From an uncultured bacterium (lineage in GTDB: Bacteria > Hydrothermota > UBA3072): DNA of 64,000 nt. Positions 3,060 through 62,537 of this stretch are shown here, piece by piece. The stretch is from assembly GCA_964523975.1 (NCBI GenBank), contig CAZGBM010000002.1:1324-65323 (forward strand), read 5' to 3'. Positions within the stretch are counted from its first letter, which is position 1, and the number at the start of each line of letters is the position of its first letter. A model generated the notes under the pieces. The model was not told the origin of the DNA, did not search any database, and worked only from the letters and a program-made list of their open reading frames with translations. Both the position numbers and the translations under genes were made by a program.

Positions 3060-3286
3060 TTTTCAGCCACAGATTATACAGAGTTCTTAATTGCCTCCAA
3101 ACACCTATCTTTTGGCAACAAATTGTCCGAATTTCACAAATGAATCAGGTATAATCACTTTTATTAATATAGAAAATAGAGTTCACCTTTTTAATATTTG
3201 CGTTATTCTTCTAAATTAGTTGTTCCACTATTTTTTAATTCATTTTGGAACTTTTTTCTTTTTGAAGTCTTCTTTTTTTCGGTAAA

Positions 3287-21679: not shown

Positions 21680-21712
21680 TCCTTTAGCTGTCAGCGAGAA
21701 TGTCTATCGGAA

Positions 21713-21756
21713 CGATTATGGCAGGAGATAACTTATAGTATCTCCTGCCATAATCG
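21713..21756 (-). other. 18-bp perfect stem / 8-nt loop hairpin between the peptidase gene and the small-protein gene
   Basis: CGATTATGGCAGGAGATA-acttatag-TATCTCCTGCCATAATCG. No U-tract follows on the minus strand. Candidate RNA processing or attenuation element. Confidence 0.5.
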
Positions 21757-21809
21757 ATTTTATCGACCTCTCATAAGTCCCGAATTAATAAGTAAAGGTT
21801 TATCGGAGC

Positions 21810-23838: not shown

Positions 23839-24252
23839 ATGAAAAATTATAAAAAAGAATTGTGGTTCAATACGCCCAACAGGGTTGATTTTATCAATAT
23901 TACTACACAGGTGGAAGAAGCTCTAAAAGAAAGTAAAATAAAAGAAGGATTATGCCTTGTTAATGCAATGCATATAACCGCAAGCGTTTTTATAAACGAT
24001 AATGAATCAGGCTTGCACGAAGATTACAAAAAATGGCTTGAAGAGAAAGTCCCTCATGACCCTCCGAGTTATAAACATAATACTTTTGAAGACAATGCGG
24101 ATGCCCATATAAAGCGCCAGCTTATGGGAAGAGAAGTTGTGGTAGCTGTTACCGAGGGACAATTGGATTTCGGCCCCTGGGAGCAGATATTCTACGGTGA
24201 ATTCGACGGGCGAAGAAAAAAAAGAGTCCTGATTAAAATAATCGGAGAATAA
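23839..24252 (+). CDS. YjbQ/UPF0047 family protein (secondary thiamine-phosphate synthase-like)
   Basis: 137 aa with the conserved core [19 protein letters not shown]...NADAHIK of the YjbQ family. Confidence 0.65.
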
Positions 24253-24494
24253 GACTCACCCACCCCCCGCCCGTTTTTCAACCACAAAGCTCACAAAGAC
24301 CACAAAGTTTTTTATTTTAAGCTAACAACTAACAGAAAAAACTATTTTTAACAACAAATCACACAAATAACACGAATAAAGTTTTTGTTACCGGTATCTG
24401 GTATCCGGTATCCGGAATCTAAAGTATAACACGAAACACAAAACTCGTAACCCGAACTTAATTATCTATTTCACCAATATCAAGGAACTTTTGC

Positions 24495-26381
24495 CTAATC
24501 TTCAGCTATTATAGTACAGTTTTTCCCTTCTCCTTTTGCAAAGTAAAGAGCTCTGTCGGCAGCGTCTATGAGATCTGTTTTATTATGCGCGTGTTTAAAC
24601 AACTCAGCTACACCTATTGAAATCGTAACGTTAAACTTAAGCCCATCCGGAGAAATAAACTCTTTTTTTTCTATAGAACTACGCAAATTCTCTGCAATTT
24701 TATAACCCTCCATGGATGTGGTTTTCAGCAGAATAATGGCGAATTCTTCTCCTCCATATCTTGCAAGTATATCAGACGACCTTACGCTGTCTTTCATCAG
24801 CTTGCCAACCTCCCGAAGAATAAGGTCTCCGTTCTGATGACCAAACCGGTCGTTTATCATCTTAAAGTTATCGAAATCTATCATAAGCAAAGTGACAGGT
24901 TCCTCGCCGCGCTCGGCTGCTTTAATTTTATCTTCCAATATCTCCTGAAAAAACCGGTGATTATAAGCTCCGGTTAATCCATCTTTATACCTTGCTTGCT
25001 CATACAAAATAGCTTTTTCTACAGAAGAAGAAGCTATATTAGTAATAATATCGAGCAAATTCAAATCTTTCTCGTTGAAAATTGCTTTATTCTTTGAAAG
25101 AAGTAGTACCCCTCCTTCTACACCTCCCTTGAAAGGTGAAAACATTAGGGATTTAGCACCAAAATCTCTCTCTTCGGGAAACAAAATGGGTCTTTTAATT
25201 TCACCGGTAAGGTCTTCTTTACAAAAAGAAAGATTTTTCTCAAGATAAGTTGCAATGATGCTCTTTCTAAGCCCCTGATAATATCGTCTTCCGTCTTCCT
25301 CTGTGACGTGATACTCGTTGCCTTCTTTAAGCAGAAAAATCGTCCAGACGTCCTTAAAACTCTCTTTTATTGTCTCAAATATTCTTTTTCTGACTTCTTC
25401 CAATTTAATATCTCCTGTTACTCTTTCCGTAAGATTTCGAAGATAACGTAACCTGAAAACCTCAAGCATTGAAAAGTTAATATGATTATAAAGAGAAAAC
25501 AGGGTTGACAAACCTTTGACAACACTTGCTATTATCTCTTTATCTCTCTCTTCAAAAGGTATTTTCTCGATTCTGTCTACAACTAAAATTCCCATAACTT
25601 TATTATTGAACTCAATAGAACTCGCAATAAAACATTTTATATTCTCTTCGTTTTTATAATAACCCAAGTTCGGTGAGGAATTATTGAAATCATTATTAAC
25701 CAAAATACCGGAGTTTTTTACATACCAGGAGAGAGGGCCCTTATTGAGCGAAACCATTTCTTTTATCTCCCCACCGCTTTTTGCTACATGGACCTGAAAT
25801 CTATCAAGTTTATCATCTTTTATCAAAAGAACAACACTAAAGGGATTAAATAATCTGACTATTATATCCAGACTTGCGGATAAAGAGTCATGAAATTTAT
25901 CCGGTATAGCAGCCGGGATATCTTTTTCTCCGGTAATCCCCGTTCTCATTTCTTCTCCCTCGACTTTTATTTTTTTGATTGGATCAATATCTTCTTTCCC
26001 AAGTAATTTAGGCTTTACCCTGTATAAGAAAATTACCGTACCATAAAAAATCAAGTAAGGTATAAATTGTAGTTCGCCAAATAATGAAAATAACGGCAAA
26101 ATTAGCCACCAAAACTTAAGCTTTAATCCTCTCTTATTCAAGATAAAAATAGCAGGAATATATGCAACAGCAAGCGGAGACGACATACCTCCTGCCACCT
26201 GCACGGCAAAAGCTATGCCGGTAAGCGCAAAATAGTAAGATATATCCTCGATTTCTATGATAAAAAAATACAAAACGGCAAGTAGCACAACCGGAATCCA
26301 AACAGGTATTGCTAATGGGAAAGCGACTAGGAGCAGATACCCCAAAAAGAATATAACGGCAGCGCACTTATATAGATTCAT
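24495..26381 (-). CDS. membrane-anchored GAF-domain diguanylate cyclase (GGDEF)
   Basis: N-terminal multi-TM region and central GAF-like domains. The C-terminal GGDEF domain carries RYGGEEF and the downstream DRALYFAKGEG block. Confidence 0.8.
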   Translation of the reverse strand: MNLYKCAAVIFFLGYLLLVAFPLAIPVWIPVVLLAVLYFFIIEIEDISYYFALTGIAFAVQVAGGMSSPLAVAYIPAIFILNKRGLKLKFWWLILPLFSLFGELQFIPYLIFYGTVIFLYRVKPKLLGKEDIDPIKKIKVEGEEMRTGITGEKDIPAAIPDKFHDSLSASLDIIVRLFNPFSVVLLIKDDKLDRFQVHVAKSGGEIKEMVSLNKGPLSWYVKNSGILVNNDFNNSSPNLGYYKNEENIKCFIASSIEFNNKVMGILVVDRIEKIPFEERDKEIIASVVKGLSTLFSLYNHINFSMLEVFRLRYLRNLTERVTGDIKLEEVRKRIFETIKESFKDVWTIFLLKEGNEYHVTEEDGRRYYQGLRKSIIATYLEKNLSFCKEDLTGEIKRPILFPEERDFGAKSLMFSPFKGGVEGGVLLLSKNKAIFNEKDLNLLDIITNIASSSVEKAILYEQARYKDGLTGAYNHRFFQEILEDKIKAAERGEEPVTLLMIDFDNFKMINDRFGHQNGDLILREVGKLMKDSVRSSDILARYGGEEFAIILLKTTSMEGYKIAENLRSSIEKKEFISPDGLKFNVTISIGVAELFKHAHNKTDLIDAADRALYFAKGEGKNCTIIAED

Positions 26382-26512
26382 ATGAAAATAATAATTTTCT
26401 ATCTAAATATTGTCAAGGATAAAGATAAAATTTAGTGTATTTTTTGAAAAATTTTTTTATCTTACCTCTTGACATAATATTAATTTTGACAAATAATAAA
26501 CAGTACATTACT

Positions 26513-27856
26513 ATGAAAACGAGAAAGGAAAGCCAGAACGAATTCGACTGGAAGCAAATAAAGAAGGAACTCCAGAAGGAAATTAACGAATCTGCTTTTA
26601 AAGCTTGGTTTGCAAATATGGATTTGGAAGAGTTAAAGGGTGAGGATGTGTATTTTAACATTCCAAACACGTTTACCCAGCACTGGATAAAAGAACATTT
26701 TATGAATAATTTAACCTCTTCAATAAAAGAAGTTACGGGGAAACTTTATAATGTACATTTTCTTGTAAACAAAAAAACAAATTTGGAAACAAATGAACAA
26801 CAAGAAACAGAAGAGGAACAACAGAAAATACAAAAACCTTTTTTACATGATAAATACACTTTCGAGAACTTTGTTGTGGGCGATAATAGTAAGTTCGCCT
26901 ATGCTGCAGCTATGGCTGTCTCCAACGCGCCGGGCAGAGAATATAACCCTCTCTTTATATACGGGGGAGTCGGATTAGGGAAAACACATCTATTACAAGC
27001 AACTGGAAACAGAGTCTACTCTCAATATCCCAATCTTCGTATACTTTACACTCAAACAGAAGAATTTCTTAATGAAATGATAAAGTCTATTCAGGAATAC
27101 TCGACAGTACAATTTAAACGAAAGTACAGAGAAATAGACCTTCTTTTAATTGATGATATCCATTTTCTCTCGGGTAAAGAAAGATTACAGGAAGAGTTCT
27201 TTCACACATTCAACGCTCTCTTTGAAGCAAAAAAGCAAATAGTTATAACTTCCGACAGGCCCCCCAAGGAGATTTCTGGCCTTGAAGAAAGGGTTATTTC
27301 TCGTTTTCACTGGGGTTTAATGGTAGATCTTCAGCCTCCTGATTACGAAACGCGTTTAGCTATTCTGCGTTCTAAAATACAAAGCGATAATATTCAAATC
27401 AGCGACAGTGTAATTAATTATATAGCCTCCAATATAAAAAACAACATTAGAGAATTAGAAGGGTGTTTAATAAAATTATTGGCGCACGCTTCTATATATA
27501 AAACAGATATTACCGTAGAACTCGCCAAAAAAGTTCTAACTGATTTTATTAAAGAAAAAGAAAAAAGAATAACACTTGAAAAAATCATTAAATCTGTTTC
27601 CGAGTTTTATAATATAGATGCAGATGAAATAAAAGGAGGTAAAAGATCCAAAAGCGTCGCTCAAGCTCGTCAGATTGCCATTTACCTTTCAAGACACTTA
27701 ACAAATCTTTCATTAAAAGAAATCGGTAACGGCTTTGGGAAAAGAGACCATTCTACAATTCTACATTCTTTCAACAAAATCGAAAATTTAATGCGGAAAA
27801 ACAATAGGATAAAAGGGGATATTTCAACCATAAAAAGTAAATTGACGGAAACTTAA
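26513..27856 (+). CDS. dnaA: chromosomal replication initiator protein DnaA
   Basis: AAA+ Walker A motif GGVGLGKTHL and domain IV (KRSKSVAQARQIAIYLSRHLT...STILHS). Start taken at MKTRK at 26513; the ORF track's upstream extension is hydrophobic junk. Confidence 0.9.
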   Translation: MKTRKESQNEFDWKQIKKELQKEINESAFKAWFANMDLEELKGEDVYFNIPNTFTQHWIKEHFMNNLTSSIKEVTGKLYNVHFLVNKKTNLETNEQQETEEEQQKIQKPFLHDKYTFENFVVGDNSKFAYAAAMAVSNAPGREYNPLFIYGGVGLGKTHLLQATGNRVYSQYPNLRILYTQTEEFLNEMIKSIQEYSTVQFKRKYREIDLLLIDDIHFLSGKERLQEEFFHTFNALFEAKKQIVITSDRPPKEISGLEERVISRFHWGLMVDLQPPDYETRLAILRSKIQSDNIQISDSVINYIASNIKNNIRELEGCLIKLLAHASIYKTDITVELAKKVLTDFIKEKEKRITLEKIIKSVSEFYNIDADEIKGGKRSKSVAQARQIAIYLSRHLTNLSLKEIGNGFGKRDHSTILHSFNKIENLMRKNNRIKGDISTIKSKLTET

Positions 27857-28021
27857 TGGAAAAATGTTTTATCAACAATTTATCTACATATAAATATGGA
27901 TAAACATATAGAAAGAATCACGAAAATAAATGAAGAAATTAGATTATCCACTTATCTACAATACCTACAATGACTACTAATTTATTATATTATTATAAGT
28001 AATGGTAAGAAAGGAGGAAAA
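27857..28021. promoter_or_regulatory. putative oriC segment: AT-rich dnaA-dnaN intergenic region with 4 DnaA-box-like 9-mers
   Basis: TTATCAACA (27869-27877), TTATCTACA (27880-27888), TTATCCACT (27944-27952) and TTATCTACA (27952-27960). Each is 8/9 to the TTATCCACA consensus. The region is an AT-rich flank. Confidence 0.55.
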
Positions 28022-29101
28022 ATGTTGTTTTCAGTAAATGCCGAAGATTTTATTAAAGAGTTTAAATCTGTAATTCAAATTGTACCTATCCACACAACTT
28101 TTCCTATACTATCTAATGTGCGGATAAAAATAGAAAAAGAAAAAATAAATATTTTTGCAACTGACCTTGATACTTCTTTGATGTATATTATGGATTTATG
28201 TAAAACAGAAAAAATAGGTGTTATTGTGGTTCCTGCGAAAACCCTATTCTCAATAATGGGAGAAATAAAGGGCGAAACGATTTTCCACAGGGAAGAAAAC
28301 AGAGTAAAGATTGAATATAAAAAAGGCTATTTTTACCTACCTTTAATGGAAGAGGAAGATTTTCCTTCCGAGCCCGTAATAACGGAAGACGAGACCTATG
28401 AGTTAAATACGGAAGAGATCAACGAAATTATAGATAAACTTGTTTTTATTGTTCCCGAGGATTCGGCTAAAAGAAAAATGAGTGGAATGCTATGGGATTA
28501 CGAAGATAAAAATCTGCGTCTTGTAGCAACAGATAGTTTTAGTCTTGGTTACAAAGACATTAAGGTCAATCTTGGAAATAAACCTTTTAAAGTGGTGGTT
28601 CCTCCAAAGATTCTAAGACAGTTAGCTACTTTTAACGTCAAGAAAATGAAAATCGGTGTTGATGAAAGCAGAATTTATTTCTTAGGAGATAAATTTACAT
28701 TAGTCTCAAATTTGATAAAAGTCGATTTCCCAAATTATAAGGCTGTAATATCGGAACAAAACGATAACTTTCTTACCCTGGACAGAGAATCTTTTCTTTC
28801 CTCTCTTAGACGGGTCTCTGTTTTTTCGAATGATAGACCCAAAACTATAAATTTGGATTTAGGAGATAACTTAAACATTGAAGTTTTCTCGGAAATAGGA
28901 GAAAGTAAGGAAGAGTTGGAGGGAGAGTATAAAGGTAAAAAAATAAATATAGCTCTTTCTTCCAATTATTTAATTGATTTTTTAAGAAAGATCAAATCTC
29001 CTAAAGTAATTTTAAGTTTTGAAGCCGAAAATAAACCTATTACAATAGAAGGAGAGAAAAAAGAAATATTTTATCTTTTAATGCCTATAACAATAGAATA
29101 A
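28022..29101 (+). CDS. dnaN: DNA polymerase III beta subunit (sliding clamp)
   Basis: 359 aa with three-domain clamp architecture. Lies immediately downstream of dnaA. Confidence 0.88.
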   Translation: MLFSVNAEDFIKEFKSVIQIVPIHTTFPILSNVRIKIEKEKINIFATDLDTSLMYIMDLCKTEKIGVIVVPAKTLFSIMGEIKGETIFHREENRVKIEYKKGYFYLPLMEEEDFPSEPVITEDETYELNTEEINEIIDKLVFIVPEDSAKRKMSGMLWDYEDKNLRLVATDSFSLGYKDIKVNLGNKPFKVVVPPKILRQLATFNVKKMKIGVDESRIYFLGDKFTLVSNLIKVDFPNYKAVISEQNDNFLTLDRESFLSSLRRVSVFSNDRPKTINLDLGDNLNIEVFSEIGESKEELEGEYKGKKINIALSSNYLIDFLRKIKSPKVILSFEAENKPITIEGEKKEIFYLLMPITIE

Positions 29102-31721: not shown

Positions 31722-33842
31722 ATGGAATGGCTTATTAGGAAAAGGTCAGGGAAAGTTGTTCCTTATAACAAAAAGAATATAAGCGTTGCTATTTCCAAAG
31801 CGTTAAAAGCAATAGGAGCGAAGGAAGACGCCAACGCTATAACCAATCAGGTTGAAACTTCCCTTTACATGAATTTTTTCCGAATCGGCAATATCCCAAC
31901 AGTAGAAGAAATTCAGAACTATGTAGAAGAAACTCTGATGCTGAGGAAGCTACCGGATGTAGCGAGAGCTTATATCCTTTACCGCGAAAAGAGAAATGAA
32001 GCTCGTAAGGTAGAAGATGTTTTCAGGGATGTTGAAGGGATAATGGGAAAATACTTAAAGAAAGAAGACTGGAGAGTTCAGGAAAATTCAAATATGAATT
32101 TTTCTCTCCAGGGATTGAATTTTTATGTTTCTTCTTCTGTTACCGCCCGGTACTGGTTAGGCAAGATTTATAGTCCCAGAATCAGAGAAGCTCACAGTAG
32201 CGGCGATTTTCATATTCACGATCTTGGCATACTCGGTCCTTATTGCGTTGGGTGGGACCTCCTGGATCTCTTAAGAGAGGGATTCAGAGGCATGAGCGGG
32301 AAAGTCGAATCTTCTCCTGCGAAACACTTAAGGAGTGCGCTTGGGCAGGTGGTTAACTTTATATATACTCTTCAGGGTGAGGCAGCAGGGGCGCAGGCTT
32401 TTTCTAACTTTGATACGCTCCTGGCTCCTTTTGTTAAGTTTGACGAATTATCTTATAAGGATACGAAGCAAGCTTTACAGGAATTTTTATTTAATATAAA
32501 TGTTCCTACCAGAGTTGGGTTCCAGACGCCTTTTTCTAATGTTACTCTGGATCTCAAAGTTCCGAAGAGTTTTAAGGACAGAAAAGTTATAGTGGGAGGA
32601 AGAGAACAAAACGCAACTTACGGCGATTTTCAGAAAGAAATGAACATGATAAATAAAGCTTTCGCGGAATTAATGATGGAGGGTGATGCAAAAGGAAGAA
32701 TTTTTACTTTCCCTATTCCCACATATAATATAACAAAAGATTTCGAATGGGAGAATGAGGATCTTATACCGGTATGGGAAATGACCGGAAAGTATGGAAT
32801 CCCTTACTTTAGTAATTTCGTTTCATCGGATATGGAACCTGAAGATGCAAGAAGTATGTGCTGTAGACTTCGTCTCGATAAGAGAGAATTAAGAAAGAGA
32901 GGAGGAGGGCTTTTCGGCTCCAATCCTCTTACTGGTAGTATAGGTGTAGTAACAATAAATATTCCAAGGGTAGCATACCTTTCTGGTGATGAGGAAGAAT
33001 TTTTTGATCGCCTTTCCAATATTATGGAAACAGCGAAGGAGTCGTTAGAGCTGAAGCGAAAAATTGTAGAGGATTTTACAAAAGAAGGATTGTATCCTTA
33101 TACAAGATACTACTTACGAGAGATAAAAAAAGCTATAGGGGCTTACTGGGCAAATCATTTCTCCACGATAGGGTTGATTGGGATGAATGAAGCCTGTGTA
33201 AATATGTTCGGGAAAGGGCTTTTGACTCCCGAGGGAAGTGAATGGGCGCGGAAAGTGCTTGAGTTTATGTTAGAGAAAATTTCAGAATTTCAGGAAGAGA
33301 CGGGAAACCTTTATAATCTCGAAGCGTCACCAGCGGAGAGTGCTTCATACCGCCTTGCGAGGGCTGATAAGGAAAGATTCCCGGATATTTATACAAAGGG
33401 CAAAGCCTATCCGTATTACACGAATTCCGTACATCCTCCTGTTGACGAAGTGGAAGATGCCTTTAGTCTTCTTGAGCATCAGGATCCGTTACAGGTTTTA
33501 TTTACGGGAGGAACAGTCGTTCATATCTTTTTGGGAGAATCTATTGAAGATTGGAGGATGGTAAGAGACCTTACCAGAAAAATAGTAGAGAGATTTTCTC
33601 TGCCTTACTTCAGCTTCACTCCGACTTTCTCAATATGTCCTGTGCATGGTTACATAAAGGGAGAGCATTTTTATTGTCCGTATCCTCACACAGAAGAAGA
33701 GTTGGAAGAATTTGGCGATGTTGCGGAACTAAACAGAAAGCAACTTACGGAAATGCAGAAAGGTTCTTACAAAAAACTTAAAGAAGAAAACAAGGAAAAA
33801 GACAAGAAAGAATTGAAAGTATTTTTAAACAAAGCAAAATAA
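31722..33842 (+). CDS. nrdD: anaerobic ribonucleoside-triphosphate reductase NrdD, lacking glycyl-radical domain
   Basis: N-terminal ATP-cone (VVPYNKKNISVAISKAL) and a class III RNR core. The C-terminal Zn ribbon reads CPVHGY...HFYCP. The ORF stops before any RxxGY glycyl-radical motif. nrdG follows. Confidence 0.8.
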   Translation: MEWLIRKRSGKVVPYNKKNISVAISKALKAIGAKEDANAITNQVETSLYMNFFRIGNIPTVEEIQNYVEETLMLRKLPDVARAYILYREKRNEARKVEDVFRDVEGIMGKYLKKEDWRVQENSNMNFSLQGLNFYVSSSVTARYWLGKIYSPRIREAHSSGDFHIHDLGILGPYCVGWDLLDLLREGFRGMSGKVESSPAKHLRSALGQVVNFIYTLQGEAAGAQAFSNFDTLLAPFVKFDELSYKDTKQALQEFLFNINVPTRVGFQTPFSNVTLDLKVPKSFKDRKVIVGGREQNATYGDFQKEMNMINKAFAELMMEGDAKGRIFTFPIPTYNITKDFEWENEDLIPVWEMTGKYGIPYFSNFVSSDMEPEDARSMCCRLRLDKRELRKRGGGLFGSNPLTGSIGVVTINIPRVAYLSGDEEEFFDRLSNIMETAKESLELKRKIVEDFTKEGLYPYTRYYLREIKKAIGAYWANHFSTIGLIGMNEACVNMFGKGLLTPEGSEWARKVLEFMLEKISEFQEETGNLYNLEASPAESASYRLARADKERFPDIYTKGKAYPYYTNSVHPPVDEVEDAFSLLEHQDPLQVLFTGGTVVHIFLGESIEDWRMVRDLTRKIVERFSLPYFSFTPTFSICPVHGYIKGEHFYCPYPHTEEELEEFGDVAELNRKQLTEMQKGSYKKLKEENKEKDKKELKVFLNKAK

Positions 33843-33858: not shown

Positions 33859-34035
33859 TTGATAGAAGAATTGAAAAAAAACGAAATTGACCTTAAAGAA
33901 AAAGTAATGACCGTGAAAACCGAAGTTTATTCGAGAGTAGTTGGTTACTATAGACCGATTCAAGATTGGAACGAAGGCAAGAGAGAAGAATTTAAAGAGA
34001 GAAGATATTTGAAAATAGAAGAAGAAAAAGAGTAG
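33859..34035 (+). CDS. stand-alone NrdD glycyl-radical domain (58 codons from TTG; 42 from ATG at 33907)
   Basis: Translation gives ...MTVKTEVYSRVVGYYRPIQDWNEGKREEFKERRYLKIEEEKE*. This matches the NrdD C-terminal radical motif RV(V/C)GY...WNxGKxxEFxxR. An AGGAG RBS lies 6 nt upstream of the TTG. Not in the ORF track because it is under 60 aa. Confidence 0.6.
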   Translation: MIEELKKNEIDLKEKVMTVKTEVYSRVVGYYRPIQDWNEGKREEFKERRYLKIEEEKE

Positions 34036-34725
34036 GTGATCAAGTCTTTTTTAGGCAGCAGCATAATAGAGTACCCCGGTAAAATCTCATCAGTAGTTTT
34101 TATAGGTGGATGTAATTTGAGATGCCCTTTTTGTTATAATCCCGATCTAGTTTTACCTGAACTTGTAGAGAAACTGTCTGATATTTCTGAAGATGAAGTT
34201 ATAAAAAAACTGAAAGAAAGAAAAGGGTTTATCGACGGAGTATCTTTTACGGGAGGAGAACCACTTCTTGCACCTGGACTTATGTCTTTTCTTAAAAGAG
34301 TTAAAGACGAGATAGGAATTAAAGTAAAAATCGATACGAATGGAACTTTACCCGACAGATTGAAAACTGCGCTGCCTTTTATTGATTATATATCGATGGA
34401 TATAAAATCTTCGCCGGAGAAATATCCTGTTGCTACCGGAAATAATACAGAATTTAAAAAAGTGGAAGAAAGTATTGAAATAATAAAAGGTATTGAAAAT
34501 TATGAATTCAGAACTACAATGGTGCCCGGTATTGTGGATAAGGATGATATTAAAAAAATATGTGAAAAGATTGGTCCCGTGAGAAAATATGTACTTCAGG
34601 GTTTTAAAAACAGAAAAACTCTTTCTCCGGAATTTTCGGGAAAATCACCTTACCTAAAGAAATATTTGAAAGAAGCTTCTCTGGATTTAAAAGAGTGTGC
34701 CGGTATAGTCGAGATTCGAGAATAA
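34036..34725 (+). CDS. nrdG: anaerobic ribonucleotide reductase activating protein (radical SAM)
   Basis: Radical-SAM cluster motif GGCNLRCPFCYN. Sits downstream of nrdD. Confidence 0.85.
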   Translation: MIKSFLGSSIIEYPGKISSVVFIGGCNLRCPFCYNPDLVLPELVEKLSDISEDEVIKKLKERKGFIDGVSFTGGEPLLAPGLMSFLKRVKDEIGIKVKIDTNGTLPDRLKTALPFIDYISMDIKSSPEKYPVATGNNTEFKKVEESIEIIKGIENYEFRTTMVPGIVDKDDIKKICEKIGPVRKYVLQGFKNRKTLSPEFSGKSPYLKKYLKEASLDLKECAGIVEIRE

Positions 34726-34745
34726 ATATCGTACCCTATCGCTCG

Positions 34746-34792
34746 CCCCGTGGAATAGAAGAAACTACCTGATGAACTCCTATTCCACGGGG
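34746..34792 (+). terminator. 13-bp perfect hairpin downstream of nrdG (possible terminator/structured element)
   Basis: CCCCGTGGAATAG - 21 nt - CTATTCCACGGGG. No clean T-tract follows. Confidence 0.35.
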
Positions 34793-34872
34793 CAAGCAAA
34801 GCCGCTAAAAAGTAAAGATCAAATATCAAAATGTAAAATTACAGATCAAAATTCAAAAATGAATAAAAAAGA

Positions 34873-34990
34873 AACAACAAATCACACGAATAGCACAAAT
34901 ATTAACAAAACAGACATTATTTTCTATATTAATAAAAATGATTATTCTTGATTTATTTGTGAAATTTGTGCAATTTGTTGTTAAAAAATG
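34873..34990. repeat. intergenic inverted-repeat element (copy A of a dispersed family)
   Basis: AACAACAAATCACACGAATAGCACAAATATT ... tattaataaaaatgatt ... ATTTGTGAAATTTGTGCAATTTGTTGTT. Near-identical internal sequence to copy B at 52551-52668. Confidence 0.6.
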
Positions 34991-35082
34991 GGTTGTTGGG
35001 TGAAAAACAATAAAAACTCTGTGCTCTCTGTGGTAAAAAATTTCTGGAGTGGTGGGTATATGGGCTCTGTGTTTTTTTGTCT

Positions 35083-35499: not shown

Positions 35500-35718
35500 A
35501 GAATTTTTCCCACAAGAGATATTGGGCTATCCGCTTTCCGCTAAACCCAACCCCACAAACCATTTTTCAACATGTAGAAAATGTAGAACCTGTAGTTTTT
35601 TGTTTTTAATTCTATATAGACTACATGACCTACATGTGTAAACTTTTTTGTTTTCTCTGCGGTTAGCAGTGAGAGGTAAGCCGGAAGCGGTTTATTACCT
35701 GCCCACTATTTTCCAATT

Positions 35719-45786: not shown

Positions 45787-46275
45787 TTACTTTATCTGTT
45801 TCAGGTCTTCTTCTATCGCCTGAAGGTCTTCTTCGTGTTCGACTTCGTCCGCGAGTATCGATTCTACCATATTGGAAGTAACAAGATCTTTATCACCCAG
45901 GAAGTCACGAAGCTTGCTGTAAACTTCTATCGCGCACTGCTCTCCTTTTATGTTCTGCTCGACTATTTTCTTTACTTTGGGGTCGCCGGGAGCATCGTAA
46001 CCGCAATTGGTCATTTTATACCAGTCTTCCGGTTTGAGAATCGGAACGCCGCCAAGCTGGATTATCCTGTCCACGAGCATCCCTGCGTGTCGCAGCTCAT
46101 CTCCTGCATGTTCGACCAGTTCCGCTACAACGGCTCCTCTCATCGGACCGACAATCACTTTAGAACCTATCCAGTATTGATAATAAGCAAGCCACTCGTC
46201 TGCCAGAGCTTTATTGAGCAACTCGATAAGTTTTTTTATATCAACTCCTACGATTTCTCTTCCTTTCGTGCCCAT
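45787..46275 (-). CDS. ferritin-like diiron protein (Dps/bacterioferritin-like)
   Basis: Ferritin-like four-helix ligand pattern (ELVEHAGDELRH ... EVEHEEDL). Start taken at MGTKG, just downstream of an AGGAGG RBS; the ORF track extends to 46419. Confidence 0.55.
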   Translation of the reverse strand: MGTKGREIVGVDIKKLIELLNKALADEWLAYYQYWIGSKVIVGPMRGAVVAELVEHAGDELRHAGMLVDRIIQLGGVPILKPEDWYKMTNCGYDAPGDPKVKKIVEQNIKGEQCAIEVYSKLRDFLGDKDLVTSNMVESILADEVEHEEDLQAIEEDLKQIK

Positions 46276-46651
46276 CTTTCCTCCTTTTTTGGGATTTTCT
46301 TTTCCGTTTAGTATGATGACTAAATAAGACAATTTGTCAACCCTCCGCACTAAGAAAATTGCCACAGAGACACAGAGAGCACAGAGAAAAAACATATTAT
46401 TTGTGTTAAAAATTTCCACCCTACAACACCAAATATTTAGACAGGATTAACACATACGATTAAATTGTTGGTCTGTTAGTCCGTTGGTCTGTTAAAAAAA
46501 CACACCAACTCACTAACACGCTAACTAAAGAAGTTATTGACATATTTTACAATCAAGATATAATTATACAGAAATTAAGAAGAGAAAGAAAGAACCAATG
46601 TGGTTTCTTTCTAATATGATAAATAAGGAGTGAAAAACTAAAGAATTAATT

Positions 46652-47707: not shown

Positions 47708-47919
47708 CTCCCAACCAAATAAGGCTTTTCCCCTTAACTATTAGCAAATACCCTATAACTTCCCTCAACTTACTGCAGTCATCGGACTTCTGTTTTTTTG
47801 ACTAACGACTCGTGACTCATGACACGTGACTGATTTTAGATTCGGAAAATCTAAAATCCCCCCTTGACAAATCCGTAAACTTGTTTATAATATAAACTAA
47901 ACTATACTATAAACCGGAG

Positions 47920-49158: not shown

Positions 49159-49432
49159 ATTGGGGTTTAGGATTTTGGTAACGGAGTCATGAGTCATCAG
49201 TCTCCACTCCCCAGTCGTGACAATAGAAGCTACAGTATCTACATGTTTTACATGTGTAAATTTTTGAGGTGTGGTGAGGTTTTAAACAAACAAAAAACTG
49301 GGGTTGTGGGATGTGCCTCTGTGTTTTTTTTCTGTGTTCTCTGTGGCAAAAAAAGGGAAGGTGGTGGTGCTTACTTGACTTATAATTGAATATTTTTATT
49401 ATAACTAAGTAATATATTTAAAAGGAGGAGAA

Positions 49433-52464: not shown

Positions 52465-52550
52465 CGAGGCAAAGCCTCTAAAATGAAAAAATTAAATATA
52501 AAAATGGAAAATGACAGATTAAAATTCAAAGATAAATTAAAAATAGAAGC

Positions 52551-52668
52551 AACGAATCACACGAATAACACAAATATTAAAAAAATAGTCTTTATTTTTC
52601 TATGTTAATAAAAATGATTGTTTCAAATTCATTTGTGAAATTTGTGCAAATTGTTGTTAAAAAATGGG
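52551..52668. repeat. intergenic inverted-repeat element (copy B), lying between the MFP and permease genes
   Basis: ...AATCACACGAATAACACAAATATT ... ttaataaaaatgattgtt ... ATTTGTGAAATTTGTGCAAATTGTTGTT. High identity to copy A. Confidence 0.6.
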
Positions 52669-52812
52669 TTGTTTTGGGTGGGATATAGATATGATTTTGC
52701 ATTTTTATTTGTCATTTTGCTTTTTAATTTTTTATATTTTATTTACCGGAAAAGGAGTGTAAAATTAAATGAGATATGTTTTTCAGAGAAAGTTACCCTA
52801 TAATACTATGAG

Positions 52813-55832: not shown

Positions 55833-55890
55833 AAGTTTAACCACAAAATAAGCATAATTTTTAATACCTCCCGCCAACCCTTTTTTAACA

Positions 55891-55998
55891 ACAAATAGCA
55901 CAAATTACACAAATATATTAAGAATAAAATTTTTTGTTAATAAAAGTAGAAATTCTTTTGTTTTCATTCGTGCTATTCGTGTAATTTGTTGTTTCTAA
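55891..55998. repeat. intergenic inverted-repeat element (copy C)
   Basis: AACAACAAATAGCACAAATTACACAAATAT ... ATTCGTGCTATTCGTGTAATTTGTTGTT. The arms are imperfect inverted repeats. Confidence 0.55.
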
Positions 55999-56080
55999 TT
56001 CTGGGATGTGTTGGGTTTTAAACAACAAAAATATAGTTTTTTTCTCTGTGTGTTTGTTTTTTCTTTGTGGTCTCTGTAGT

Positions 56081-60397: not shown

Positions 60398-60606
60398 ACA
60401 AAAAAAACATTTACCACAAAGAACACAAAGAGCACAAAGTTGTTTATTCTTTAGCTAACAGCTAAAGGCAAAAAGCTAAATTCTTAGTTTAACAACAAAT
60501 TACACGAATATCACGAATATTTTTTAAACTTGGAACTCAAAACAATCGTCCGTTGATTAATAAGAAGATTACATATATTATTATTCTAAATAATAAGGAG
60601 TTATAA

Positions 60607-61434: not shown

Positions 61435-61619
61435 CTTTTTGTTCAACAAAAAATAAAATAAAACACAGAAGTGGAAATAGCAAATTAGTGAATTAGTTGA
61501 TTGGTGAATTAGTAGGAAAATTGCTAAAAGCCAAAGGTGAAAAGCTAAGAGCTATGTAGAAACCGGTATCTGGTACCTGGTATCTGGTATCTGGTATCTA
61601 AAATTCACCACAGAGTTTT

Positions 61620-62327: not shown

Positions 62328-62537
62328 TATACGTCCCCTCCTTCATTTAAATTAAAACGAAATAATTTATTTTTTTAAATTGTAGATATTTAAGAAAAAA
62401 TGTCAAGGAATTTTTTAGCCATCGGATGTTTTACTAATCAACTAATTTACCAATTGACTAATATACTGAATCGAAGATTCTACGGGATTCAAAAAACAAG
62501 ACCTGCCTTGATTGTTTTCCACGCAAATCTATAGTAG

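Follow-up and report, generated by a model that had tools for sequence, protein, structure and literature searches.

Word-triplet cassettes in the intergenic DNA of a WOR-3-related bacterium: a possible family of miniature mosaic repeats

Introduction

Forty years after small interspersed repeats became known, most of them are still without an established function. This work deals with repeats of this kind in a 64,000-nucleotide stretch of DNA (the window) from an uncultured bacterium (contig CAZGBM010000002.1), in which the intergenic gap at 24253-24494 is built from a small vocabulary of repeated words. A first-pass annotation had proposed that this gap and several others belong to one modular repeat system, rather than being independent low-complexity tracts. 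The segment 24257-24457 is interpreted here, tentatively, as a mosaic of miniature interspersed repeat cassettes, between which stand runs of A or T and blocks of C or G.

Among the closest described systems, the short tandemly repeated repetitive sequences (STRR) of heterocystous cyanobacteria are intergenic, hairpin-capable arrays with few copies of tandem 7-bp units, and a role in transcript stability or translational coupling has been proposed for them (PMC2670836). Small dispersed repeats (SDR) insert into HIP1 and are confined to the Nostocaceae (PMC5861425); their description is also cited elsewhere (PMC3116915). Bacterial interspersed mosaic elements (BIME), repetitive extragenic palindromic sequences (REP) and REP doublets forming hairpins (REPIN) are extragenic and high-copy, lie mostly at the 3' ends of genes and form mosaics of motifs in alternating orientation (PMC3116915; PMC3184786). 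In Streptococcus pneumoniae, BOX elements consist of modules (boxA, a variable number of boxB, boxC), lie between genes and are transcribed together with their neighbours; they have been judged parasitic, with slow transposition and a mobilising enzyme that is not known (PMC3049150). The locus studied here resembles STRR in that each genome has several families of tandem heptamers in its intergenic DNA, including those at 24393-24420 and 61565-61599 of the window.

The composite at 24257-24457 and its relatives

The composite lies between a YjbQ gene (23839-24252, + strand) and a convergent GGDEF gene ending at 24495, and all its cassettes are described on the + strand. The first cassette past the YjbQ stop at 24252, read from the sequence, is a C-block (CACCCACCCCCCGCCC) followed by T5 (24257-24278). 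Next come: the K3 cassette AA-CCACAAAG-CT-CACAAAG-AC-CACAAAG (24279-24307), with three 7-nt words at 9-nt spacing (words 24283-24307); a T-rich linker (24308-24349) with a degenerate S word of the AGCTAAC type (AAGCTAACAACTAACAG, 24320-24336), which was aligned by eye to the intact S module AAGCTAACAGCTAAAGGCGAAGAGCTAAAAGCTTAG of the Type II copies described below; the 28-nt arm cassette AACAACAAAT-CA-CACAAAT-AA-CACGAAT (that is, AACAACAAATCACACAAATAACACGAAT; 24350-24377); a heptamer cassette, CC-GGTATCT-GGTATCC-GGTATCC-GGAATCT (24391-24420, words 24393-24420); and a heptamer/octamer cassette of the CGAAAC type (AACACGAAACACAAAACTCGTAACCCGAAC, 24428-24457), found with Tandem Repeats Finder (TRF). 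Pairs of C-block and T-run recur beside arms in relatives, the GGTATCT array lies at an offset from the arm that is typical of heptamer arrays, and CGAAAC-type arrays also follow arms in four related loci (L021, L003, L019 and L060). All the strings quoted in the first-pass annotation are present, with the correction that the CACAAAG array ends at 24307, not at 24315.

A stretch identical to the window is present on the JGI contig Ga0315548_1000331. Relatives were gathered by scanning for the arm pattern, with one genome per species: at least 100 stretches carry the arm, and 13 species known from metagenome-assembled genomes (MAG; 34-41% G+C) account for nearly all arm-bearing stretches among the matches listed. 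One of these species is labelled candidate division WOR-3, the current name of which is Caldifarciminota, and the window shares 86% nucleotide identity with a WOR-3 MAG (L027) across 1.5 kb. The working set used below comprises 98 related loci plus the window (679 kb, 13 MAG species). A metagenome scan with YjbQ yielded 80 loci of unrelated lineages (amino-acid identity 75-78%), which are without the word vocabulary and served as a negative control.

Enrichment and constancy of the cassettes

The window contains 23 matches to CACARAG against 9.3 expected (none of 100 shuffles reached 23), 7 copies of AACAACAAAT against 0.33, 8 full 28-nt arms (AACAACAAAT-nn-CACRAAT-nn-CACRAAT, up to 3 mismatches) against 0.00, and 2 CACARAG triples with 9-nt spacing against 0.02; clusters of GGTATCYGGTA occur solely at the two GGTATCT arrays. 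TRF arrays with a period of 6-11 reach 2.05 per kb in the intergenic DNA of the window and 0.25 per kb elsewhere. Short arrays of 7-9-nt units in the working set reach 3.46 per kb in intergenic DNA and 0.18 per kb in open reading frames (ORFs). In a second count, intergenic DNA had 3.25 arrays per kb, compared to 0.07-0.09 in dinucleotide-type shuffles and 0.19 in the intergenic DNA of 26 unrelated low-GC loci (17 times fewer); periods 7, 8 and 9 prevail. The first-pass annotation had named a lack of intergenic enrichment over shuffled controls as grounds for refutation; this was not observed, as the density of arrays in intergenic DNA is about 40 times that of its shuffled counterpart and 19 times that of ORFs.

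CACARAG words in the working set occur as 190 pairs, 116 triples and one chain of five, never as quadruples; conservation in the triples is about 95-100% at the seven word positions, and the two spacer positions are open to any base. The spacing of the words is mostly 9 nt (n = 281), followed by 8 nt (n = 120) and 10 nt (n = 25), and one ordered variant of the triple (CACGAAG-CACTAAG-CACAAAG) was found again in different species. Intergenic period-7 arrays with 3-5 copies (n = 127) include the families TGACNAG, CCTAAAA, CGAAACN and GGTATCT. The length of a cassette is nearly constant, 26-30 nt, whatever the length of its unit (medians of 30 nt and 4.3 copies for 7-mers, 27 nt and 3.4 copies for 8-mers, 26 nt and 2.9 copies for 9-mers).

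Order of the cassettes in composites

The proposal of one modular system was borne out by the relatives: the 13 related MAG species show these cassettes again, with their order and relative orientation kept. Three types of composite were distinguished. Type I, about 110 nt long, reads K3, AAAAACAACAAAA...TTTGTT, C-block, AAACTAAGAG and arm, and has 41 copies in at least 12 of the 13 MAG species (we assigned the loci to MAGs ourselves). Type II reads K3, T-run, S module (AAGCTAACAGCTAAAGGCGAAGAGCTAAAAGCTTAG, the AGCTAA hairpin word), TTT and arm; its six copies, five in other species and one at 60413-60518 (+) of the window (K3 60415-60439, S module 60457-60487, arm 60491-60518), have sharp common ends and unrelated flanks, and the segment 24279-24377 is a further, degenerate copy of the same composite. 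Neither Type I nor Type II has inverted ends.

Type III is palindromic, its order being C-block, T6, arm, a loop of 24-93 nt, inverted arm, CTCTTAGTTT or A6, G-block and inverted K3; it occurs in the window at 34.9, 52.6 and 55.9 kb, with a decayed copy at 3.1 kb. Arm pairs with loops of this length number 16-18. Each Type III unit has one alpha arm (CACAAAT words; spacers AG and TA or TT) and one beta arm (CACGAAT words; spacers CA and AG or AA), and the spacers of the two arms are identical at only 4 of 72 positions compared to 28.7 expected; this pairing of alpha with beta is as expected from descent from a master copy with unlike ends.

Heptamer arrays of the families TGACNAG, CCTAAAA/CCTAAAT, CGAAACN and GGTATCT come after an arm and a T-run, 27-45 nt from the start of the arm and in a fixed orientation, in line with one modular system. 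The order of the modules is kept within Types I-III, but the cassettes are exchanged, rather than one module being iterated.

Turnover at orthologous sites

Closely related loci differ in their cassettes. The loci L062 and L090 are 94% identical over six genes and a promoter, and the arm is retained, but all the cassettes between the arm and the -35 box differ; the orthologous sites of L088/L094 and of L083/L091 (about 80% identical) hold different or inverted cassettes. At the YjbQ ortholog of L030, the arm is kept and GAGTCAT and CCTAAAT cassettes replace the K3 and GGTATCT cassettes of the window. Contigs made by several assemblers break inside arms or K3 cassettes (L005, L023, L036, L040, L043, L061, L090, L191 and L192).

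Two ideas were discarded. An inverton does not agree with L191 and L192, two independent assemblies of the same organism, both of which show the 55.9-kb unit in the orientation of the window; and the genes between distant inverted arms in L014 and L032 are ordinary housekeeping genes, encoding a pyruvate kinase, a methyltransferase, a radical-SAM protein and a glycosidase, not a transposase.

Occurrence beyond the phylum

The vocabulary is not private to the source genome or to its phylum. An AT-rich arm pair occurs in a Geobacteraceae contig of 56% GC, and arm hairpins with a 12-nt loop in a 4.4-Mb metagenomic chromosome of 38% G+C (L048; OW818663.1 968001-976000), in tandem units of about 290 nt, each of which also has CGGGATGT words and an array of CAGTTAT heptamers. 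Phage-like IMG/VR contigs (L183-L189; G+C 0.40-0.52; holin, Dam methylase and HU-HIG genes) bear arm pairs 27-30 nt upstream of two genes, and these pairs bracket 130-190 nt of 9-nt stutters (CGGAATTGA, TTCCGTTTC). The phage arm region had no BLAST match among GenBank phages, and BLAST of the arm unit against plasmids gave only AT-rich matches at chance level.

The K3 pattern is present in at least 120 IMG/VR stretches (median G+C 0.58, up to six copies per contig among the matches listed), and the viral contigs are those of real phages, with genes for tail-collar fibres, HNH endonucleases and head proteases. The grammar is kept in the phage copies: after K3 come heptamers (CTTAAAA, AATCGAA or GTCAATT), triples (CACGAAG or CACGGAT) or an inverted K3. 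In cultured bacteria, K3 was detected as short BLAST matches with weak E-values, and the sequences were inspected directly: K3 hairpins occur in Bacteroides finegoldii (downstream of nadC) and in Pseudoalteromonas shioyasakiensis, and Gemmatirosa kalamazoonensis (L312; L315, plasmid 2, 929289-932321) has nested palindromes of word triplets in DNA of 71% GC, in the order CCGCAGAG x3, K3, loop, inverted K3, CTCTGCGG x3, with 24 and 14 K3-like places on its two megaplasmids. K3-type cassettes are also present on Nostocales plasmids, including a K3 in sense orientation on a plasmid of Calothrix, 13 nt ahead of a start codon.

A possible reading as miniature mosaic repeats

The reading that we favour, with less than even confidence, is that the cassettes form a family of miniature, probably mobile, mosaic repeats, of a kind with STRR, SDR, BIME and BOX. 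It is drawn from the absence of strand bias, a turnover faster than that of the flanking non-coding DNA, the sharp ends of the composites, the unlike arms of each palindromic unit, the assembly breaks in the repeats and their horizontal reach. Only 2 of 87 K triples lie in ORFs, though ORFs make up 85% of the DNA; 17 K triples are in convergent and 7 in divergent gaps, the arms are likewise distributed (29 and 8), and Type I is not found in divergent gaps. Cassettes of a single word (9-mers in three copies, 8-mers in three to four, 7-mers in four to five) would be inherited and copied as units and would join in ordered composites, such as the K3, T-run, S hairpin word, arm and heptamer arrays at 24257-24457. 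They would be non-coding, non-autonomous and probably mobile, and would settle where they are least harmful, being tolerated at the borders of transcription units only: not in ORFs, and for the most part in gaps with the end of one gene or more. Dispersed copies may then recombine and so reshuffle the cassettes fast, with the conserved arms as anchors. Conserved words with free spacers argue for recognition by some molecule, and the countable grammar as a whole (fixed length, exactly three 9-mers) points to a defined one; the invariant words would be putative recognition sites for a protein, either a mobilising enzyme or an abundant nucleic-acid-binding protein. Mobility and its mechanism, the recognition of the words by a protein and the absence of a dedicated host function are what we infer from these patterns.

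Several observations weigh against this reading. Most arms (94 of 116) are solitary, without a partner; limited searches found no transposase or autonomous parent in the loci, and no target-site duplication was visible, again in a limited search, flanking the Type II copies, L057 or the phage copies. Type I is biased 2:1 to the sense orientation (24:12), and its sense copies begin 5-60 nt past a stop codon. The window shows no enrichment of canonical intrinsic terminators (19 compared to 15.6 expected in one count, 18 compared to 17.9 in another), so that transcripts must be ended by something else. Double changes in the 4-bp stem of the S module preserve its pairing (AGCC/GGCT three times, AACT/AGTT, AGCC/GGTT). 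Related phages keep K3 and its heptamers upstream of the tail-fibre gene, in the sense orientation, and in 71 of 192 distinct viral copies (37%) among the matches listed, the first CAC is preceded by a stop triplet at a distance of exactly 4 nt; other offsets have a stop triplet in at most 15 copies, 25 of the 71 exact stops close an ORF of at least 80 codons, and the next ATG after viral K3 is often 0-60 nt away. The kept position in phages and this 4-nt rule look more like function than parasitism. Finally, the working set was ascertained via the arm and its ORFs were called mechanically, both of which limit the statistics given above.

Alternative explanations

The main rival of the mosaic-repeat reading, which we consider unlikely but place before the others, is a punctuation of transcripts at the RNA level: CA-rich, G-poor, structure-free cassettes would act between a stop codon and the next start by loading Rho (as rut-like sites), by keeping the next ribosome-binding site open or by coupling translation, the palindromes would be 3' hairpins, and the vocabulary would be conserved as one read by a universal machine. 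The sense bias of Type I, its start shortly past a same-strand stop and the lack of terminator enrichment count in its favour. So does the lack of structure: the consensus structure of Type I has 0 pairs, and on either strand the RNA of the composite region forms a poorer fold than its shuffles (z = +0.87 and +2.61). A good fold was obtained for the palindromic zone at 34800-35082 (z = -2.45). Phages and the Calothrix plasmid place a sense K3 between a stop triplet and the next ATG. In the viral set, 31 of 61 K3 copies follow a same-strand stop at a distance of up to 150 nt, compared to 16 for the mirror position, a comparison that says little because long spurious ORFs are so common at 60% G+C.

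The orientation of the cassettes relative to the genes speaks against punctuation of transcripts. A strand bias, which the first-pass annotation had named as the sign of a terminator or small RNA role, was not found: CACARAG triples in co-directional gaps are 19 sense and 19 antisense, and unpaired arms 21 sense and 16 antisense. No excess of C over G was detected after stops between co-directional genes (base composition, working set), and orthologous sites hold inverted copies of the same cassette. The K words at 49317-49369 are antisense to both neighbours, and the K3 at 46363-46386 falls in a purely divergent promoter region when the ferritin start is corrected to 46275. Measured against rut sites, composition and lack of structure fit, whereas orientation (19:19 for the triples, 24:12 for Type I) and the C-over-G ratio do not. 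The cassettes are not intrinsic terminators, which have a G+C-rich hairpin and a U-tract: no such site is present in 24253-24494. The 3' flanks of tRNA genes, taken as a guide to terminators, were too few and had no common signal.

A wider version of the same idea seems to us quite improbable: the word-triplet cassettes would be a punctuation code of several phyla and their phages, read by a conserved machine (Rho, the ribosome, or RNA polymerase with a partner), in which K3 would mark the junction of stop and start and the grammar would mark the ends of transcription units in lineages without hairpin terminators. It appeals to the 37% of viral copies that follow the 4-nt stop rule, to the ATG within 0-60 nt and to words that are near-identical across genomes of 37%-71% G+C.

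Just as doubtful is a role at the DNA level, as binding arrays for an abundant nucleoid-associated or roadblock protein that would insulate transcription units whatever their orientation. The arrays are neutral in orientation and mark the gaps between transcription units, their words are conserved with free spacers and a fixed copy number, their footprint is about 27-30 bp, and one K3 lies 23 nt upstream of the ferritin -35 element. However, word spacings of 8, 9 and 10 nt (120, 281 and 25 cases) would rotate the sites round the helix; the many unrelated word families would each need a protein of their own, for which there is no candidate; and the wholesale swapping of cassettes at orthologous sites speaks against site-specific regulation.

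It is less probable still, and improbable by any measure, that the cassettes are genes for small RNAs or RNA sponges with their own promoters, the CA- or GU-rich words of which would base-pair with RNA or titrate an RNA-binding protein. Pointing in this direction are a -35/-10-like pair (TTAACA-17-TATATT) in the palindrome loops 34902-34930 and 55940-55912, the compensatory changes in the S stem, which are the sole hint of a selected single-strand structure, and AACAACAAA, which we take to fit the A-R-N type of Hfq site. A promoter in the loop is not a general feature of the palindromes, as it belongs to one subfamily; the loops are otherwise unrelated, measure 24-93 nt and mostly have no promoter-like pair. 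The whole window gave no match in Rfam 15, either at gathering scores or at E <= 1; the unrelated upstream flanks of Type I and Type II copies leave no shared promoter, and the composites have neither a terminator after them nor a consensus structure. Selection for an RNA hairpin on the arm pairs was also discarded: their spacers never pair (4 of 72 positions), and the energy difference between the strands is small (mean 5.5 kcal/mol), in a direction not tied to the flanking genes.

Neutral low-complexity DNA is scarcely credible: the units are short and tandem, the DNA is AT-rich and the heptamer copy number differs among related phages, but a fixed copy count (9-mers at three, none at four) and conserved words with variable spacers contradict microsatellite-like slippage as the source, different species and phyla have 27-nt triples in common, ordered variants such as CACGAAG-CACTAAG-CACAAAG among them, and control low-GC intergenic DNA is 17 times poorer in arrays.

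The mosaic-repeat reading and its rivals differ in what they would mean. If mobile, the cassettes would rank with the smallest mobile units known, and if the host reads them, they would amount to a novel form of punctuation for genes. In this phylum, which has hardly been studied, most larger intergenic gaps are filled with them, and the question is open to bench work, as K3 is common to many phages and to culturable bacteria (Bacteroides, Gemmatirosa, Pseudoalteromonas and Nostocales). In practice, the repeats break MAG assemblies, mislead gene callers (as in a 59-amino-acid call described below) and inflate ORF starts (as in the ferritin gene).

Other cassette sites and neighbouring genes

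The palindromic unit at 34873-35071 has its arm at 34873-34900, a 54-nt loop and the inverted arm at 34955-34982, followed by A6, a G-block (GGGTTGTTGGGTG) and CTCTGTG words (35017-35032 and 35065-35071); a public gene call of 59 amino acids (L190 2049-2228) sits inside this mosaic zone, at 34.8-35.0 kb. A second unit at 52548-52744 (arms 52548-52575 and 52631-52658, G-block, T-rich word cassette) is 86-90% identical to it. A third, at 55867-56069, is inverted relative to the 34.9-kb unit and consists of a C-block, arms at 55887-55914 and 55966-55993, a G-block and CTCTGTG/CTTTGTG words (56044-56069). The degenerate copy at 3097-3217 is 78% complementary to 34879-34999.

Outside the composites, a K3 cassette (CACAGAG-A-CACAGAG-AG-CACAGAG) lies at 46363-46386 (+), between the divergent ferritin and aminotransferase genes. 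The mechanical ferritin ORF (45787-46419) is overlong and takes in this cassette: its Ferritin domain begins at residue 65, and an ATG at 46275 follows AGGAGG. K words (CACAGAG...CACAGAA...CACAGAG) and a C-block are found at 49317-49369 (-), with the CTCTGTG-type words at 49317-49345. The segment 61483-61599 (+) comprises an octamer cassette (GAATTAGT x4, 61483-61513), an S module (61526-61556) and GGTATCT x5 (61565-61599), the second GGTATCT array of the first-pass annotation, which is real. That annotation had placed such motifs consistently near AACAACAAAT, which is correct for four of the six CACARAG sites (24283, 35017, 56044 and 60415, within 80 nt of an arm) but not for those at 46363 and 49317, nor for the GGTATCT array at 61565. 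A GACTCGT-type heptamer cassette at 47800-47831 (+) is located upstream of a promoter at 47864; a GAGTCAT array at 49184-49202 is related to it, and the same family (TGACNAG) follows arms in relatives. TRF also detected CATGTAG x3 (35571-35597) with inverted CTACATG x2 (35619-35636), together at 35571-35636.

The promoters recognised by eye are of the sigma-70 type and lie just downstream of the mosaic zone. They often have a C-run directly before the -35 box (CCCCTTGAC-16/17-TATAAT), as at 46537, 47864 and 49375 of the window and in many loci, and the border between mosaic zone and promoter is conserved between species, whereas the cassettes are not. A small hairpin word, AGATTC-loop-GAATCT (for example AGATTCGGAAAATCT), stands between the cassettes and the next promoter (47838-47852, 62468-62480) and recurs in seven relatives (L010, L014, L017, L022, L034, L052 and L053). 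Two long G+C-containing hairpins after genes, GGCAGGAGATA...TATCTCCTGCC (21702-21767) and CGCCCCGTGGAATAG...CTATTCCACGGGGC (34737-34788), are without a U-tract and outside the word vocabulary.

The genes dnaA (26435-27856) and dnaN (28022-29101) are at the minimum of the cumulative GC skew, and the 26-28 kb region of the window is probably the neighbourhood of a replication origin. A single TTATCCACT near these genes (27944-27952) resembles a DnaA box, and the dnaA/dnaN intergenic gaps are without word cassettes. A replication-strand bias of K3 was discarded, as its orientation is mixed to the right of this probable origin. The anaerobic ribonucleotide reductase gene nrdD (31722-33842) is followed by a separate ORF of 58 amino acids (33859-34035) and by an activase-like radical-SAM gene (34036-34725); the glycyl-radical motif RVVGYY of the small ORF suggests that the radical domain is encoded apart from the body of NrdD.

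Comparison with known systems

Nothing on these words or on repeats of WOR-3 was found in the searchable literature, and the WOR-3 genome descriptions in it do not mention repeats; the system appears to be undescribed, although similar in kind to the known small interspersed repeats. Of the classes compared, the cassettes agree only with the generic definition of tandem heptamer repeats.

The classical STRR units are CCCCAGT, TTGGTCA and CAACAGT. The words found here are unlike these, the host is WOR-3-related and not a cyanobacterium, and units of 7, 8 and 9 nt form fixed-length cassettes in ordered composites, together with a 28-nt arm and C- or G-blocks. The SDR of the Nostocaceae, reportedly described by Elhai and colleagues in 2008, are said to be 21-27 nt long and to have been proposed as mobile, with no known mobilising protein. 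They are very small dispersed units of a size similar to that of the cassettes, beside which they are set by description and not by sequence; they differ in being reported from Nostocaceae only, and we know of no SDR description that includes a build from word triplets or ordered composites.

The 16-18 arm pairs resemble REPIN, which are inverted doublets with a spacer. REP, however, is a G+C-rich palindrome, whereas the arm and K3 are direct repeats without self-pairing, which excludes them from REP and REPIN on self-palindromy; moreover, most of the arms are solitary, and no gene for a REP-associated tyrosine transposase (RAYT) was seen in the 8-kb loci, which are parts of the MAGs and not whole ones. 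As regards miniature inverted-repeat transposable elements (MITE), the palindromic units have 28-nt arms that are systematically unlike (alpha compared to beta), and membership was discarded after a limited search of the loci that found neither target-site duplication nor a related insertion sequence with such ends.

BOX elements, too, are modular and intergenic. The BOX modules are 45-59 nt long; they are unique sequences with extensive structure and occur in a few streptococci only, whereas the modules described here are stutters of 26-30 nt, mostly structure-free, and K3 crosses phyla and occurs in phages. Mycobacteriophage stoperators and start-associated sequences are short, asymmetric intergenic motifs present in many copies per phage genome, in one orientation and near starts, and the K3 cassettes of the phage contigs L217, L194 and L259 fit this pattern. 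Stoperator-type motifs are single sites of 12-13 bp, specific to one phage cluster and its repressor; K3, in contrast, is a 27-nt triple common to phages of very unlike G+C and to several bacterial phyla. Compared to all these systems, the unusual points are the triplet-cassette build and a member, K3, that is shared across phyla and with phages.

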